From Escherichia coli (GTDB lineage Bacteria; Pseudomonadota; Gammaproteobacteria; Enterobacterales; Enterobacteriaceae): a stretch of 64,000 nt of DNA. The DNA lies in assembly GCF_029227855.1 (NCBI RefSeq), contig NZ_CP074356.1. One strand, 5' to 3'. The translations under genes and the position numbers were made by a program. Below the pieces are notes generated by a model. That model was not told the DNA's origin, searched no databases, and saw only the letters and a list, made by a program, of their open reading frames with translations. This document shows, piece after piece, positions 6,953 through 41,487 of the stretch (its first letter is position 1; every line of letters starts with the position of its first letter).

Positions 6953-7828
6953 TTAACCGTTATTATTACGTCCGCCAGAACGGCGACCACCGCTCACCTG
7001 GCTATGACGTTTCACCGCACGACGAATCTGATTCGCCTTCATACGACGACGGTCTTTTTCTACGGCAACTTTAGAGCTGGTTTCTGGTGGCAGTTCCACC
7101 AGTTCACGCAGATAGTTAGTCTGAGCGAGGTCCAGCTCCGTCCAGCCACCGCGTGGCAGACCTTTTGGCAGTGGGATATCACCGTAACGCACACGGATCA
7201 GGCGACTTACCTGCACACCAACCGCTTCCCAAAGACGACGAACCTCACGGTTACGGCCTTCGGTCAGAGTAACGTTGTACCACTGGTTGATCCCTTCGCC
7301 GCCGCTGAACTTGATGGTTTTAAAGGCTGCCGGACCATCTTCCAGCTGCACGCCACGACTCAAATCACGCAGTTTCGCGTCGTCAACCTGACCAAATACA
7401 CGCACGGCATATTCACGTTCAACTTCACGGCTAGGATGCATTAAACGATTTGCCAGTTCACCGTCGGTGGTGAAGAGCAACAGACCACAGGTGTTAACGT
7501 CCAGACGACCTACGGCAATCCAGCGTGCGCCACGCAGCTTTGGCAGACGGTCAAACACCGTTGGACGCCCTTCCGGATCGTTACGGGTACACAACTCACC
7601 TTCCGGTTTGTAATAGGCCAGAACGCGACAAATTTGTTCAGCGGACTCACGTACCGAAATCAGGTGACCATCGATACGGATTTTCAATCCAGGGGTAATT
7701 TCAACACGATCGCCGAGTTTAGCAATTTTGCCATCAACACTCACACGACCGGCTTCAATAATAGATTCGATTTCACGGCGAGAACCGTGGCCGGCACGCG
7801 CCAGCACTTTCTGTAGCTTTTCGCTCAT
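6953..7828 (-). CDS. rluB: 23S rRNA pseudouridine(2605) synthase
   Basis: 291 aa; S4 domain N-terminus, RsuA-family catalytic core ([17 protein letters not shown]), Arg/Gly-rich basic C-tail. Confidence 0.9.
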
Positions 7829-7879
7829 AGAGCTTCCTTTTGGTGTCGCCTTCCCAGGCGTCTGATATGCTTTTGTGCA

Positions 7880-7911
7880 ACAGTGAGTCAGAACTTACAT
7901 CTGACTCACTG
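7880..7911. promoter_or_regulatory. perfect 12 bp inverted repeat in rluB upstream/leader region
   Basis: CAGTGAGTCAGA-ACTTACAT-TCTGACTCACTG at 7880-7911, about 55-85 bp upstream of the rluB start codon on its strand. Confidence 0.35.
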
Positions 7912-8038
7912 ATAGTAAAGTCTGTTTGAACTCTTCAGGCCTTAAGTAAACGACTCGACGTTTATCGGCCTGGCTTTGAGGCGCAACATACTACACTATC
8001 TTTATGGTTAAAGCTTGTTTCGATTAACATCAGCTTAA

Positions 8039-9934
8039 TTACCAGCCACCACCGCCTCCGCCACCCGCCCCGCCGCCAGCACCACCACCGGAATAACTTC
8101 GCCCCAACAAACTGGTATTGGCCCCCAGGCTCAGGTGCGTCTGTAATGAGAATAAAACGCCACTACGGGCAATTTCCGGGGCGCGAACAGCCGCTGTGAG
8201 TGATGGGGTGATACGTGCTGCCCATTCTCTGCCAAGGTTTGCCGAGACCGCCCAACCTAACAACGCGTAATCCAGTTTCCGTGTTTCCCCTTTCCGCCGC
8301 CGCCCACTGTGTGTTGCCGCCTCTTTACGCGCAAGATAGTTAACGATAGCTTCACCGTGGGCATAACGTTGCTGCCCAGTTTGGGTAAACTTTGGCAGAA
8401 AAATATACCCTATGCCAGTGAGATAACCGGTCAGGAAAACAGCGCTAAAATAACCCGCTGGCATATACCAGTAAAAGAATACATCTCCGACATTGATATA
8501 GAGAGAATAGAAGGCCACGCCTGAACAAATCAGTGGTAAAAACAAAGTGATGATTACACGATTAACGCAAGGCTTGTCATCATCGCGGGCAAATAAAAGC
8601 TCTAGGGAACAAAATAAAAAAGGAAGAAGCCAGCAGATCATAATAAACATATCGCCTACCAGACTCATTCCTGCCCAGCCTACGGGACTCAGGTTACCGT
8701 AGAGAATGACCGCCAATATTGCCATTCCGCCCCATTGCAAAAACGCATCAGGTCGGTAAAACGAAGACTTTTTACGCGGCAGATAAAATTTCTGCATCCG
8801 TAAAAATGCCTTGCGTAAGACTCTGTTGCGTCTCCCCGTAAGAACGACCTTATCGCCTTTACGAAATAACGCTTCCAGTAATAACTGCTCTGCGGGCAGT
8901 AATACCGCATTATTTCTGGTCGCGCCTTCATTAACACGAATCAGGATTTGCTGGTTCTTGTCATACTGATCTTTCAGATGAATTTTGCCTTTCACAATCA
9001 GATTTACGATATCGGCACAAAAACCTTTATCGTCGTAAACCAGTTTCGCATCGAGACGTAACATGCCGGGCGTGTAATCTGGCGGAATGACATCGGTTTC
9101 AATCACATCTACCGGCGTAAATTGTGGCCTGCGCTTCCAGAGATATAACCATCCACACGCCAGGAACAGACACGGAAACCAAATTAACAACGATGACGTA
9201 GAGGGTAAAAGAAGATGGCTGTAAATATTCGTCGTTTGTGGTGCCGGGGCATTACCAAGTAAAGCGTGAGGCCAGCGGTAGAGGACCGTGAAGTCTTCAC
9301 GATAAAACGGATCGCGGGATTCAATTCTTCCGTCCTCAAGGATGCGGCCATTTCGATATGTGTCGCCCTCTTCTCCAGTAAAGAGATCAATTTCGCTAAA
9401 TGGATTACCCGCAATATCAGGCAACTGGAGAGAAAATCGGGTCTTATAGATTTCAAACGGCCACTTGTTACCGGTCACGTTCCAGATTAACAGATCTGAA
9501 TCTCCCTCACGCAGGAAAGCATTTTTAACCTGATAATGAATTTGATAATGATAGTCGCCTTGAGGCAAGAAACGTTGTTTATCGCCCACGACAATACTCA
9601 TTAACCCGATATGCCAGTCAAGATGCCAGGGTTCAGGAATACCATCACGGGTGACGCCAACAATATGATAGTTCAGTAGTGCAGCGTCCCCATTAGGCTG
9701 CATCCATAGTCGTGGTAAATCACGATAAAATCCGTGCTTAATCTGCTGATTTCGCGCCTGAAAATGAATATTTTCTTTGATGTCGAGCACCCCATCCGGT
9801 TGCAGAGTGGCTTCAACATCAAAGAGCGAGATCCCTTCTTCATAAGAAGGGATCTCCGTGTTTTCTGCATAACTTAGAGATGCTACAAACAGCCCTGCTA
9901 TCAACAGCAAAATGCAGCGAAACTTCCCTGCCAT
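8039..9934 (-). CDS. yciQ: DUF2207-type membrane protein YciQ
   Basis: 631 aa; signal peptide, several TM helices, glycine-only C-terminal tail (GGGAGGGAGGGGGGGW). Confidence 0.85.
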   Translation of the reverse strand: MAGKFRCILLLIAGLFVASLSYAENTEIPSYEEGISLFDVEATLQPDGVLDIKENIHFQARNQQIKHGFYRDLPRLWMQPNGDAALLNYHIVGVTRDGIPEPWHLDWHIGLMSIVVGDKQRFLPQGDYHYQIHYQVKNAFLREGDSDLLIWNVTGNKWPFEIYKTRFSLQLPDIAGNPFSEIDLFTGEEGDTYRNGRILEDGRIESRDPFYREDFTVLYRWPHALLGNAPAPQTTNIYSHLLLPSTSSLLIWFPCLFLACGWLYLWKRRPQFTPVDVIETDVIPPDYTPGMLRLDAKLVYDDKGFCADIVNLIVKGKIHLKDQYDKNQQILIRVNEGATRNNAVLLPAEQLLLEALFRKGDKVVLTGRRNRVLRKAFLRMQKFYLPRKKSSFYRPDAFLQWGGMAILAVILYGNLSPVGWAGMSLVGDMFIMICWLLPFLFCSLELLFARDDDKPCVNRVIITLFLPLICSGVAFYSLYINVGDVFFYWYMPAGYFSAVFLTGYLTGIGYIFLPKFTQTGQQRYAHGEAIVNYLARKEAATHSGRRRKGETRKLDYALLGWAVSANLGREWAARITPSLTAAVRAPEIARSGVLFSLQTHLSLGANTSLLGRSYSGGGAGGGAGGGGGGGW

Positions 9935-9961: not shown

Positions 9962-10582
9962 TTATAAGAAAGGCTTCACATCACCTACGCCTTCACGCAC
10001 CACGACCGGCGTATCATCGGTAAGATCAATAACCGTTGTTGGTTTCTGTCCGAGATAGCCGCCGTGGATAATCAAATCCACCTGTTTTTCCAGACGGTCT
10101 TTAATTTCTTCGGGATCGGATTCGGTAAATTCGCTGCCTGGCAGCATTAGCGAAGTGGAAAGCATCGGTTCGCCCAATGCTTCAAGCAACGCCTGCGCAA
10201 TCGGGTTAGAAGGCACACGCATACCGATGGTTTTGCGTTTTTCCTGCAACAGACGGCGTGGCACCTCCTTCGTCCCTTTCAGGATGAAGGTGTAGTTGCC
10301 CGGCGTGTTGTTTTTCATCAAACGAAACGCAACGTTATCCACGAATGAATAGGTCGAGAGCTCAGAAAGATCGCGACACATCAGGGTAAAGTTGTGACCG
10401 TCCGGCAGCTGGCGAATTCGACAAATACGCTCCATGGCGTTTTTATCTTCAATTTTACAGCCGAGCGCATAGCCGGAATCGGTTGGATAAACAATCACCC
10501 CGCCTTTACGCACGATCTCCACCGCCTGGTTGATCAGTCGTTGCTGCGGGTTATCAGGATGAATATAAAAAAACTGGCTCAT
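9962..10582 (-). CDS. yciO: L-threonylcarbamoyladenylate synthase-like protein YciO (YrdC/Sua5 fold)
   Basis: Start refined to internal Met (MSQFFYIHPDNPQQRL...) giving 206 aa; the ORF-track 218 aa version would overlap yciV by 40 bp. Confidence 0.85.
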   Translation of the reverse strand: MSQFFYIHPDNPQQRLINQAVEIVRKGGVIVYPTDSGYALGCKIEDKNAMERICRIRQLPDGHNFTLMCRDLSELSTYSFVDNVAFRLMKNNTPGNYTFILKGTKEVPRRLLQEKRKTIGMRVPSNPIAQALLEALGEPMLSTSLMLPGSEFTESDPEEIKDRLEKQVDLIIHGGYLGQKPTTVIDLTDDTPVVVREGVGDVKPFL

Positions 10583-11460
10583 AATTCCCTCTCTGTGGTG
10601 TTCTGCGGCTGTTCCCATAGCTGCCAGACGCCTTCAACGCCTGCAGGCAGCCAGAGTTTACGACCCAGTTCAATCCACGGGCACGGCTGATGAAAATCAG
10701 ATCCTTGTGATGCCCATAAATGATGCTGACGCGCAAGTGTCGCCAGCTGGGTGCGTTCATTGGGCGATTGCTGGCACTGCGCGACTTCCATCGCGTCGCC
10801 GTGGTGTTCAGCAAAATGCGCAACCAATCTTTTCAGCCATTTAGCACTAAGATTGTACCGCCCAGGATGAGCTAGCACCGCCTTACCGCCAGAATGATGA
10901 ATGACATCAATAGCTTGTTCTATTGTACACCACTGTGGCGGAACGTATCCGGTTTTCCCGCGCGCCAGATATTTTTTAAAGACATCCGCCATTGAACTGG
11001 CTTTGCCGCACTCCACAAGGAAACGAGCAAAATGACCGCGCGTCACCGCACCGCCCTGCGCCAGTCGTTGCGCGCCTTCCAGCGCACCTGGTATCTGCGC
11101 TTTTTCAAGTCTTTCGGCAATCAGCTGCGCCCGCTGATTGCGCCGTTCTGTCTGCTGCGCGAGGAACTCACACATTAGCGGATGAGTAATATCAATATTC
11201 AGCCCGACAATGTGAATTTCATGATTTTCCCAGACCGTGGAAATTTCCACGCCGGGAATAAGATTCAGCGCCAGTCCCGAACGTGAAATTTCCTCTCTTG
11301 CTGGTGAGATTGCAGCTGTGGTGTCATGGTCGGTGATCGCCAGGGTGCCGACGCGCATCTCGACTGCACGGTGCACCAATGCTTCTGGCGTCAGGCAGCC
11401 ATCGGAAGCTGTGGTATGGCTGTGCAGGTCGTAAATCACTGCGTAATTCGTGTCGCTCAA
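10579..11460 (-). CDS. yciV: PHP-domain phosphoesterase (RNase AM)
   Basis: 293 aa; PHP metal-binding start YDLHSHTTASDG; stop overlaps yciO start by 4 nt. Confidence 0.85.
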   Translation of the reverse strand: MSDTNYAVIYDLHSHTTASDGCLTPEALVHRAVEMRVGTLAITDHDTTAAISPAREEISRSGLALNLIPGVEISTVWENHEIHIVGLNIDITHPLMCEFLAQQTERRNQRAQLIAERLEKAQIPGALEGAQRLAQGGAVTRGHFARFLVECGKASSMADVFKKYLARGKTGYVPPQWCTIEQAIDVIHHSGGKAVLAHPGRYNLSAKWLKRLVAHFAEHHGDAMEVAQCQQSPNERTQLATLARQHHLWASQGSDFHQPCPWIELGRKLWLPAGVEGVWQLWEQPQNTTEREL

Positions 11461-22832: not shown

Positions 22833-22837
22833 TAATC

Positions 22838-22862
22838 AAAAGCCTCCGGTCGGAGGCTTTTG
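22838..22862. terminator. bidirectional terminator shared by yciA and tonB
   Basis: AAAAGCCTCCGGTCGGAGGCTTTT: symmetric hairpin with A-run on one side and T-run on the other, between convergent stops. Confidence 0.85.
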
Positions 22863-22871
22863 ACTTTCTGC

Positions 22872-39996: not shown

Positions 39997-40025
39997 AAAA
40001 ATCCCGCCATCGGCGGGATTTTTTA
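39997..40025 (+). terminator. hns terminator
   Basis: ATCCCGCC-ATC-GGCGGGAT hairpin followed by TTTTTT. Confidence 0.85.
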
Positions 40026-40062: not shown

Positions 40063-40774
40063 AATAAATATCCTCCGGCATAGCCGGAGGTTTTTCAAAT
40101 GCGCCTATAAGGCTCTCTTACCAGCCGCGCCCTAACAGGCGCACACGATCTGACATTTGCATCCAACTTCGTTACTTACGGCCCGTAAACGGGCTGCCCG
40201 GATAGGGAATCGATAACTGCTCTCCCATTTTATCCTCTTCAAGCTGGTGCTTTATGTAATCCTGTATCTTCGCCGTGTTCTTACCCACCGTATCGACGTA
40301 GTACCCTCTGCACCAGAACTCCCTGTTCCTGTATTTGAATTTCAAATCACCAAACTGCTCGTAAAGCATCAGACTGCTTTTCCCTTTCAGATATCCCATA
40401 AAGCCGGATACGCTCATTTTGGGCGGGATCTCCACAAGCATATGGATATGATCTGCACAGCATTCAGCTTCCAGAATCCGTACACTTTTCCACTCACACA
40501 GCTTTCTCAAAATACTGCCTATTGCTCTACGCTTCTCTCTGTAGAACACCTGTCTTCGGTATTTTGGCGCAAAAACTATGTGATATTTACAGTTCCATCG
40601 GGTGTGCGCTAAGCTCTTTTCGTTCCCCATTGGGACCCCCTTTTGATTTCTTGTTTGACACTTGCAGTTGCCAGACCGCAAGGTGTTTTAACAAATCAAA
40701 AGGGGTTTTAATAACTGGCTTAAAGCTGAAAGCTTTCCGGAACCCCCAGCCTAGCTGGGGGTTTTCTGTGCACA
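40063..40774 (-). mobile_element. IS200 copy 1 (IS200/IS605 family), head-to-tail with copy 2
   Basis: About 712 bp unit with tnpA (HuH/Y1 transposase) and subterminal palindromes (CCTCCGGCATAGCCGGAGG at one end; CCCCCAGCCTAGCTGGGGG at the tnpA-proximal end). Boundaries are ambiguous by 1-3 nt. Confidence 0.85.
40172..40630 (-). CDS. tnpA: IS200 transposase TnpA (152 aa)
   Basis: Start refined to MGNEKSLAHTRWNCKYHIVFAPKYRR...; HxH motif (ADHIHMLVEIPP) and catalytic Tyr region (YIKHQ). Confidence 0.88.
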   Translation of the reverse strand: MGNEKSLAHTRWNCKYHIVFAPKYRRQVFYREKRRAIGSILRKLCEWKSVRILEAECCADHIHMLVEIPPKMSVSGFMGYLKGKSSLMLYEQFGDLKFKYRNREFWCRGYYVDTVGKNTAKIQDYIKHQLEEDKMGEQLSIPYPGSPFTGRK

Positions 40775-41487
40775 AATAAATATCCTCCGGCATAGCCGGA
40801 GGTTTTTCAAATGCGCCTATAAGGCTCTCTTACCAGCCGCGCCCTAACAGGCGCACACGATCTGACATTTGCATCCAACTTCGTTACTTACGGCCCGTAA
40901 ACGGGCTGCCCGGATAGGGAATCGATAACTGCTCTCCCATTTTATCCTCTTCAAGCTGGTGCTTTATGTAATCCTGTATCTTCGCCGTGTTCTTACCCAC
41001 TGTATCGACGTAGTACCCTCTGCACCAGAACTCCCTGTTCCTGTATTTGAATTTCAAATCACCAAACTGCTCGTAAAGCATCAGACTGCTTTTCCCTTTC
41101 AGATATCCCATAAACCCGGATACGCTCATTTTGGGCGGGATCTCCACAAGCATATGGATATGATCTGCACAGCATTCAGCTTCCAGAATCCGTACGCTTT
41201 TCCACTCACACAGCTTTCTCAAAATACTGCCTATTGCTCTACGCTTCTCTCTGTAGAACACCTGTCTTCGGTATTTTGGCGCAAAAACTATGTGATATTT
41301 ACAGTTCCATCGGGTGTGCGCTAAGCTCTTTTCGTTCCCCATTGGGACCCCCTTTTGATTTCTTGTTTGACACTTGCAGTTGCCAGACCGCAAAGTGTTT
41401 TAACAAATCAAAAGGGGTTTTAATAACTGGCTCAAAGCTGAAAGCTTTCCGGAACCCCCAGCCTAGCTGGGGGTTTTCTGTGCACAA
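40775..41487 (-). mobile_element. IS200 copy 2, directly abutting copy 1
   Basis: Second unit, same orientation, no spacer; differs from copy 1 at a handful of positions; ends at the A-run of the galU terminator. Confidence 0.85.
40884..41342 (-). CDS. tnpA: IS200 transposase TnpA (152 aa), copy 2
   Basis: Protein identical to copy 1 in the ORF track although the DNA differs at a few sites. Confidence 0.88.
   Translation of the reverse strand: MGNEKSLAHTRWNCKYHIVFAPKYRRQVFYREKRRAIGSILRKLCEWKSVRILEAECCADHIHMLVEIPPKMSVSGFMGYLKGKSSLMLYEQFGDLKFKYRNREFWCRGYYVDTVGKNTAKIQDYIKHQLEEDKMGEQLSIPYPGSPFTGRK

Follow-up and report, generated by a model that had tools for sequence, protein, structure and literature searches.

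Stem-loops of the ompA type in the 5' untranslated region (UTR) are said to stabilise transcripts, and structural elements to act as obstacles to RNase E scanning, reportedly from work by Emory et al. in 1992 and by Richards and Belasco in 2019. Other described leader structures include the 5'-leader intrinsic-terminator attenuators of the Escherichia coli Term-seq catalogue (PMC7815308), in which a stable stem-loop lies between promoter and start codon, and the ribosomal autoregulatory leaders, such as that of rplJL, which is bound by L10(L12)4 (PMC4538822). The leader considered here belongs to rluB, the gene for the 23S rRNA pseudouridine 2605 synthase, and shares features with each of these classes. 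Literature searches on rluB returned no description of its regulation, and for none of the E. coli rRNA pseudouridine synthase genes is a mode of regulation known to have been described.

Within the window, that is, the whole 64-kb stretch of E. coli DNA analysed, rluB lies on the minus strand (6953..7828), preceded on the same strand by yciQ (8039..9934), an accessory DUF2207 gene tied to the long-leader allele described below, and by yciO (9962..10618); gene positions and names follow the open reading frame list and RefSeq. Reading of the sequence and a repeat finder both placed in the yciQ-rluB spacer the 12-nt CAGTGAGTCAGA (7881-7892) and its exact reverse complement TCTGACTCACTG (7900-7911), arms that are 100% complementary and separated by a 7-nt loop (ACTTACA on the plus strand). 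An earlier note on this DNA had reported a perfect 12-bp inverted repeat in the rluB leader; the repeat is present, starting at 7881, one base later than the 7880 given there, and its loop is 7 nt long rather than 8. The location that the note gave, 55-85 nt upstream of the rluB start, also holds, with the exact span corrected to -53 to -83 from the A of the ATG, and the hairpin does lie well downstream of the yciQ stop, starting 127 nt past it. Read as rluB-sense RNA from the minus strand, the 5' arm is CAGUGAGUCAGA (7900..7911; columns 23-34 of alignment A3, described below), the loop is UGUAAGU (7893..7899) and the 3' arm is UCUGACUCACUG (7881..7892), as identified by the repeat finder and by folding and, for the 3' arm, in A3 as well. 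These are followed by a tail, UUGCACAAAAGCAUAUCA (7863..7880), which lacks a U-tract here. The stem has 12 perfect pairs, six of them G-C, and the folding energy of the hairpin is -20.1 kcal/mol, with z = -5.1 relative to shuffled sequences; the entire 210-nt yciQ-rluB intergenic spacer gives z = -4.4.

Such repeats are rarely expected by chance. A first-order Markov simulation, counting perfect repeats with arms of at least 12 bp and loops of 3-10 nt, gave 0.05 per simulated 64-kb window, and four are present in the real window. Two of the other three (22836-22863 and 39997-40023) are terminator-like, with a G+C-rich stem and A/T-run flanks. A search of the window with the 12-mer matched only the two arms of the hairpin, and the sequence occupies a median of one place per E. 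coli genome, so that the multiple copies typical of REP/BIME, ERIC or MITE-like elements are not seen. The hairpin sequence had no match in viral contigs, and its plasmid matches were chromosome-sized or chromosome-derived (mislabelled chromosome) records; a mobile or repeated element was rejected on these grounds. Also observed in the window were a perfect palindrome in the 5' coding part of yciQ (9828-9856; GAGATCCCTTCTT-CAT-AAGAAGGGATCTC), with 13-bp arms, a 3-nt loop and two GATC sites, and a 23-nt palindromic sequence, AACCCCCAGCCTAGCTGGGGGTT, present in two identical copies 712 bp apart (40741-40763 and 41453-41475).

The hairpin is transcribed with rluB. In the SMRT-Cappable-seq data of PMC6131387, b1269 (rluB) is the sole gene of a primary transcript that runs from position 1326700 to 1327761 of NC_000913.3, and a second rluB start is given at 1326297, within yciQ. 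In rich medium 37 reads begin at 1326700; 18 of them stop at the rluB terminator, five end within 50 bp downstream of it and two continue beyond, and the end of rluB is thus reached by 25 of the 37 (PMC6131387). K-12 and the window are identical in the start-site region, and transfer of coordinates via the E. coli locus L001 places the transcription start site at 7980 on the minus strand. The rluB 5' UTR is then 152 nt long, with the AUG at +153 and the hairpin at +70 to +100 (K-12 1326769-1326799). Because this start lies upstream of the hairpin and not downstream of it, the hairpin belongs to the rluB 5' UTR, where the earlier note had placed it pending a mapped 5' end.

A scan for sigma-70 consensus promoters on the minus strand between 7700 and 8200 returned none, and the -10 hexamer TAGTAT (7988..7993), which is followed by the GC-rich discriminator GTTGCGCC, was chosen from conservation alone. 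The mapped start agrees with it in position, 8 nt from the last base of the hexamer, and most loci keep the arrangement as TAGTAT, TAATAT, TATACT or TATAAT followed by GCGG or GCGC. A second promoter between the hairpin and the conserved box described below, with GTATAC or CATATC as its -10, was rejected, as 1326297 and 1326700 are the only b1269 starts listed by SMRT-Cappable-seq. Between the start site and the repeat lies another hairpin, leader hairpin 1 (7936..7972), with an outer stem CAGGCC/GGCCUG and an inner stem AAACG/CGUUU, the apical part of which is missing, through a deletion, from L004, a divergent Escherichia allele. The rluB Shine-Dalgarno sequence, AAGGAAG, is at 7833..7839, as read from the sequence and the leader alignments. 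Term-seq with bicyclomycin (PMC7815308) places a bicyclomycin-sensitive, Rho-dependent site within yciQ at K-12 position 1325258 (about 9422 in the window), which fits with yciQ being a Rho-silenced accessory gene and rluB depending on its own promoters.

The hairpin is unchanged in eight sampled E. coli lineages except for ST131/B2-type alleles, in which a C-to-U change in the 3' arm at 7883 converts a G-C pair to G.U in the rluB-sense RNA. The allele L004, whose spacer is only 77% identical to that of the window and which occurs in none of 5426 complete E. coli genomes, has the arms CAGTGGGGCAGG and TCTGCCCCACTG, amounting to two fully compensatory pair changes and one G.U pair. Template-switch (quasi-palindrome) mutation can maintain perfect palindromes without selection, and this weakens the comparison of E. 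coli with L004 taken alone; the G.U-rich conservation across genera is unaffected. That broader comparison used A3, an alignment of 24 long-type leaders from Escherichia to Yersinia which beyond Escherichia includes Leclercia, Kosakonia, Pseudocitrobacter, Cedecea, Shimwellia, Pluralibacter, Erwinia, Yersinia and several MAGs. Pairing across the 12 stem pairs holds in 85.5% of the cells of A3, compared with 30-49% when the partner is slid; nine of the 12 pairs show changes on both sides, and the observed scores were reached by none of 500 shuffles. RNAalifold recovered the stem base with no structure supplied. A covariance model built from A3 found one match in each of 100 sources, and the 97 distinct leaders among these were aligned (A4); there all 12 stem pairs covary (0.314 versus 0.098 in shuffles), in an alignment that was fitted to the model and hence favours it.

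The fold also prefers one strand. In 23 of the 24 A3 leaders the sense strand gives the more stable fold, with a mean gap of 6 kcal/mol to the antisense strand, owing to the many G.U pairs in the homologous stems. The loop is free to change in length and sequence among homologues, and the stem base, CAGUGAG/CUCAYUG, is conserved in sequence in long-type leaders from Escherichia to Yersinia. Stem strength reaches -20 kcal/mol in the E. coli long allele and -25 kcal/mol in L004, and the homologous hairpins of other genera are weaker (-2 to -18 kcal/mol) and irregular. Short-type and Pantoea/Erwinia-type leaders have a hairpin of wholly different sequence, and in L004 the upper stem is rewritten. 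The conservation of pairing through compensatory changes, a check named in the earlier note, is therefore seen in L004, in A3 and in the 97-leader alignment. Together with the bias of the fold towards the sense strand, these changes point to an RNA structure in the rluB transcript and not to a symmetric DNA site, and we conclude with high confidence that the rluB 5' UTR carries this repeat as a conserved hairpin of the sense-strand RNA.

What follows the stem bears on how this hairpin arose. In E. coli the tail (TTGCACAAAAG / UUGCACAA; the RNA begins UUGCAC) has two U residues in 8 nt and no U-tract, a terminator scan of 7700-8200 found nothing, and the Term-seq tables of PMC7815308 give no mapped 3' end at the hairpin, the only nearby position among the ends listed being 1327761, after rluB. 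Such an absence from the listed ends implies that attenuation in E. coli is at best weak. In the view of the earlier note the E. coli hairpin was unlikely to be an intrinsic terminator; the missing U-tract, the lack of a listed 3' end and the 25 of 37 reads that run to the end of rluB all agree with this. Because SMRT-Cappable-seq selects long molecules and leaves short RNAs uncaptured, those reads would miss any short attenuated transcripts either way.

Relatives present a different picture. At least four U residues occur in the first 8 nt past the stem in 52 of 100 leaders, as counted on the covariance-model alignment (an ungapped terminator scan of all loci was too strict to inform), and in many genera the stem is directly followed by the U-tract UUUUUGAAAGUAUACCA at the place of the E. 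coli tail. The Kosakonia homologue (L038), which has 14 pairs and the tail TTTTTGAAAG, is accepted by the terminator scan. In the short leader of other E. coli, of Citrobacter and of Enterobacter, another hairpin occupies the corresponding position, with UUGAUUCUCC or UUUUUGACC after it. Escherichia stands at the low end among leaders, with two U residues after the stem in the E. coli long allele and one in L004. Given these tails, the ancestral element resembles an intrinsic terminator with the rluB promoter on one side and the gene on the other, and the comparison suggests an ancestry as a leader attenuator whose U-tract has since been lost in Escherichia. About half of the homologous leaders lack a U-tract, from which it follows that termination is not the sole conserved role; inspection of the leaders by eye recognised no antiterminator or conserved alternative pairing. 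The best explanation of the whole is that the hairpin is a decayed attenuator, in which Escherichia has largely given up termination and kept the stem, now as a structural module. We regard this as probable, with modest confidence, and the specific function of the hairpin in present-day E. coli is far less certain than its conservation.

Under this decayed-attenuator explanation, the ancestral hairpin and U-tract would have formed an attenuator between the rluB promoter and gene that also kept transcription of the upstream gene from running into rluB. Loss of the U-tract and a stronger stem would have followed in Escherichia, and RNA polymerase would therefore mostly read through the hairpin. 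The E. coli structure is the local version of an Enterobacterales leader hairpin, which is followed closely by a GNRA hairpin, then by the Shine-Dalgarno sequence and finally by the start codon. At present the hairpin may serve to pause RNA polymerase or terminate it weakly, to hinder 5'-end-dependent attack by RNase E, or to insulate the downstream regulatory hairpins so that they fold independently.

The strongest constraint in the leader falls on the GNRA hairpin. It is formed by an invariant box, GACGCCUGGGAAGGCGAC (7845..7862, minus strand), that begins 18 nt downstream of the repeat hairpin and just upstream of the rluB Shine-Dalgarno sequence. In its general form, GACGCCTG[G/T]GAAGGCGAC (RNA GACGCCUGKGAAGGCGAC), the box precedes rluB in all 82 Enterobacterales loci compared (L001-L082), which span Escherichia to Yersinia, Serratia, Erwinia and Pantoea. 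RNAalifold and the covariance alignment fold it as a GNRA tetraloop (GGGA or GUGA) on a 5-bp stem, CGCCU/AGGCG, with the N of CGCCU-GNGA-AGGCG as the sole variable base; the stem is 99.8% paired and never varies in the 97 distinct leaders. The identity of the RluB protein falls to about 82% over the range in which the box stays invariant. In Yersinia RluB (L068, 3905-4010) an inserted stretch of about 32 residues, in which Lys, Pro and Gln abound, directly follows the conserved MSEK N-terminus, as a result of which tblastn set the start about 95 nt too far downstream. Metagenome matches to the box outside high-G+C DNA all precede an rluB homologue or sit in DNA that is recognisably an rluB leader but runs out at a contig end. 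The other matches lie in high-G+C DNA, mostly with C at the N position and with no rluB nearby, and look like chance. A further mini-hairpin, GCUC-UAU-GAGC (7823..7833, minus strand; general form GCUC-nAU-GAGC), was predicted by RNAalifold; it includes the rluB AUG and is 96.9% paired in A4.

Neither the box nor the leader as a whole corresponds to an Rfam family. Rfam 15 covariance models run over the window leader at E <= 10 produced no credible match. At E <= 1, in six leaders covering all three types, the sole match over a leader was Histone3 on the antisense strand of L005, a chance match that scored 22.5 bits and so fell below the gathering score of 34. Literature searches found no description of the box and no paper on regulation through the rluB leader. 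One resemblance was noted within rRNA itself: nt 302-315 of 23S rRNA (L209, 2461-2474) form the hairpin CGUCU-GGAA-AGGCG, which matches nine of the ten box stem positions and has a GNRA loop. It is one of three 5-bp GNRA hairpins in 23S rRNA, a rough estimate of p is about 0.05, and the likeness may be mimicry or chance.

Among alternatives to the decayed attenuator, the one that survives best is binding of the hairpin and GNRA box by RluB, through its S4-like domain, or by a ribosomal or assembly protein, with feedback on the translation or stability of rluB. The sequence-conserved stem base of long-type leaders would suit such a site, as would the adjoining box, which holds invariant in 97 distinct leaders as RluB itself diverges and resembles a 23S rRNA hairpin. 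However, a binding site would hardly be expected to have a wholly different hairpin sequence in short-type and Pantoea/Erwinia-type leaders or a rewritten upper stem in L004, the rRNA likeness is weak, and the literature searches found no paper on such a site; we consider this alternative doubtful. A wider proposal, also unlikely in our judgement and offered tentatively, is that hairpin, box and start-codon hairpin together form an undescribed cis-regulatory RNA that would tie the expression of rluB to assembly of the 50S subunit. By mimicking 23S nt 302-315 it might, for example, attract RluB or a large-subunit protein, and the hairpin would set termination, pausing or the folding of the sensor. 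In E. coli no convincing pairing of the hairpin with the Shine-Dalgarno sequence or start region was found. A switch in which the 3' arm CUCAYUG would pair with CAAUGAG at the rluB start was rejected, being perfect in few genera and only 4 bp long in E. coli, and by eye it does not track the CTCAATG/CTCTATG variation in A3. An AUG-UAA start-stop mini-ORF in the loop is not conserved, and the L004 loop has no AUG.

It is improbable that the palindrome acts instead as DNA, as an operator or IHF-type site downstream of the rluB start with an effect on transcription. A perfect palindrome does suit a dimeric DNA-binding protein, and in 22 of the 82 loci the antisense strand of the 3' arm position is an exact IHF core, WATCAANNNNTTR (AATCAAnnnnTTA), compared with 0.67 in shuffles; in these relatives its N4 segment varies and it lies at a fixed distance upstream of the box, 26-28 or 36-40 nt. 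The leaders that carry it, among L031-L082, belong to Pantoea, Erwinia, Yersinia, Kosakonia cowanii and others. E. coli is not among them: its leader (L001) has no exact core, and CAACAGTGAGTCA shows three or four mismatches by eye. Moreover, the N4 positions covary with the opposite arm, which IHF binding does not require, the homologous stems are full of G.U pairs that break the symmetry of the DNA, and the sense strand folds far better. LexA, SlmA (GTGAGTACTCAC) and FNR (TTGAT-N4-ATCAA) sites were rejected on half-sites or spacing, compared by eye with the consensus sequences, and the palindrome is not known to fit any E. coli operator consensus.

The distribution of the hairpin within E. 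coli raises the question of yciQ. The 210-nt yciQ-rluB spacer is found in 3995 of 5426 complete E. coli genomes; the full spacer was counted in 3976 and the spacer together with the end of yciQ in 3970. About 26% of complete genomes have neither yciQ nor the long leader and carry the short leader with its different hairpin instead; the long-type hairpin, missing from this fraction, is dispensable for the species. In yciQ-less E. coli such as strain N96, yciO is followed by about 100 nt and then rluB, the arrangement also seen in E. albertii and Citrobacter, and the two E. coli leader alleles have only the last 35 nt or so before the rluB ATG in common. As yciQ-less E. coli do not have the spacer, the hairpin was first read as cargo of a yciQ insertion. 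No yciQ homologue was found in any of 80 rluB loci of other Enterobacterales, and a search with the spacer retrieved the divergent copy in L004 and partial matches in yciQ-less enterobacterial genomes; the cargo reading was rejected, as homologous hairpins stand upstream of rluB in genera without yciQ.

A related possibility, that the hairpin is a 3'-end element of yciQ (a terminator or stabiliser) which arrived with that gene and only incidentally precedes rluB, is very improbable. It would account for the restriction of the hairpin within E. coli to yciQ genomes and for the match of yciQ-less strains to nothing but the last ~35 nt before the ATG. Yet yciQ-less genera have homologous hairpins with the same flanks upstream of rluB, the rluB start site falls between the yciQ stop and the hairpin, the hairpin has neither a U-tract nor a listed 3' end, and the Rho-dependent site at 1325258 lies inside yciQ. 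The two natural leader alleles, with and without yciQ, offer a means of testing the role of the hairpin by allele swaps.

At the yciO-rluB junction, where the polymorphic part in the window is yciQ (8039-9934) plus the spacer (7863-8038), other genera carry different cargo, and the junction looks like an insertion hot spot on account of this variety. In Leclercia (L023, 2475-3736) the DNA inserted between yciO and rluB holds small ORFs and a gene for a 163-aa protein with the N-terminus MPIPPYMWLKDDGGADIKGS...; by eye this N-terminus looks Hcp-like (type VI secretion tube), and the insert may be a candidate orphan Hcp-effector islet.

Least probable of all is an RNase III processing site in the rluB 5' UTR, an option raised in the earlier note, for although the hairpin is a perfect duplex in an mRNA leader, on which a long-range stem (8000-7985 with 7926-7911) could stack in read-through transcripts starting upstream of 8000, its 12 bp are about half of the ~22 bp, or about two helical turns of dsRNA, that RNase III accommodates (PMC6212723), the homologous hairpins elsewhere are weaker and irregular, and the long-range stem, itself a rejected candidate, lies upstream of the mapped start, hence is missing from the promoter-proximal transcript, and is not kept in L004.

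The locus can now be set against the described systems. With its own promoter and a structured leader, rluB has an architecture that is kept across Enterobacterales, is absent from Rfam and provides a testable handle on the control of a ribosome-biogenesis enzyme. Like the 5'-leader attenuators of the E. coli Term-seq catalogue (PMC7815308), rluB has a stable stem-loop between promoter and start codon; its homologues are alike in that about half have a U-tract, one passes the terminator scan, and structure is conserved over sequence. The E. coli copy differs from those attenuators in having no U-tract, no listed 3' end and no recognised antiterminator or sensing factor. An exact IHF core stands at the position in question in 22 of 82 homologous leaders, but the window copy is mismatched, and covariation and strand asymmetry favour RNA.

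Like the stabilising stem-loops of ompA type, the rluB hairpin is strong, conserved in structure and part of a long 5' UTR. The short-type and Pantoea/Erwinia-type hairpins sit about 5-25 nt from the inferred 5' end, whereas the hairpin of the window starts at +70 and not at the 5' terminus. Like the ribosomal autoregulatory leaders, exemplified by rplJL (PMC4538822), rluB belongs to ribosome biogenesis and carries an invariant small hairpin beside the Shine-Dalgarno sequence, although that box shares only a faint resemblance to an rRNA hairpin and the 12-bp hairpin, variable in sequence, is not the invariant part of the leader. The repeat is thus an ordinary kind of object, a leader stem-loop with terminator ancestry, and the strongly constrained and more unusual part of the rluB leader is the GNRA box rather than the hairpin.
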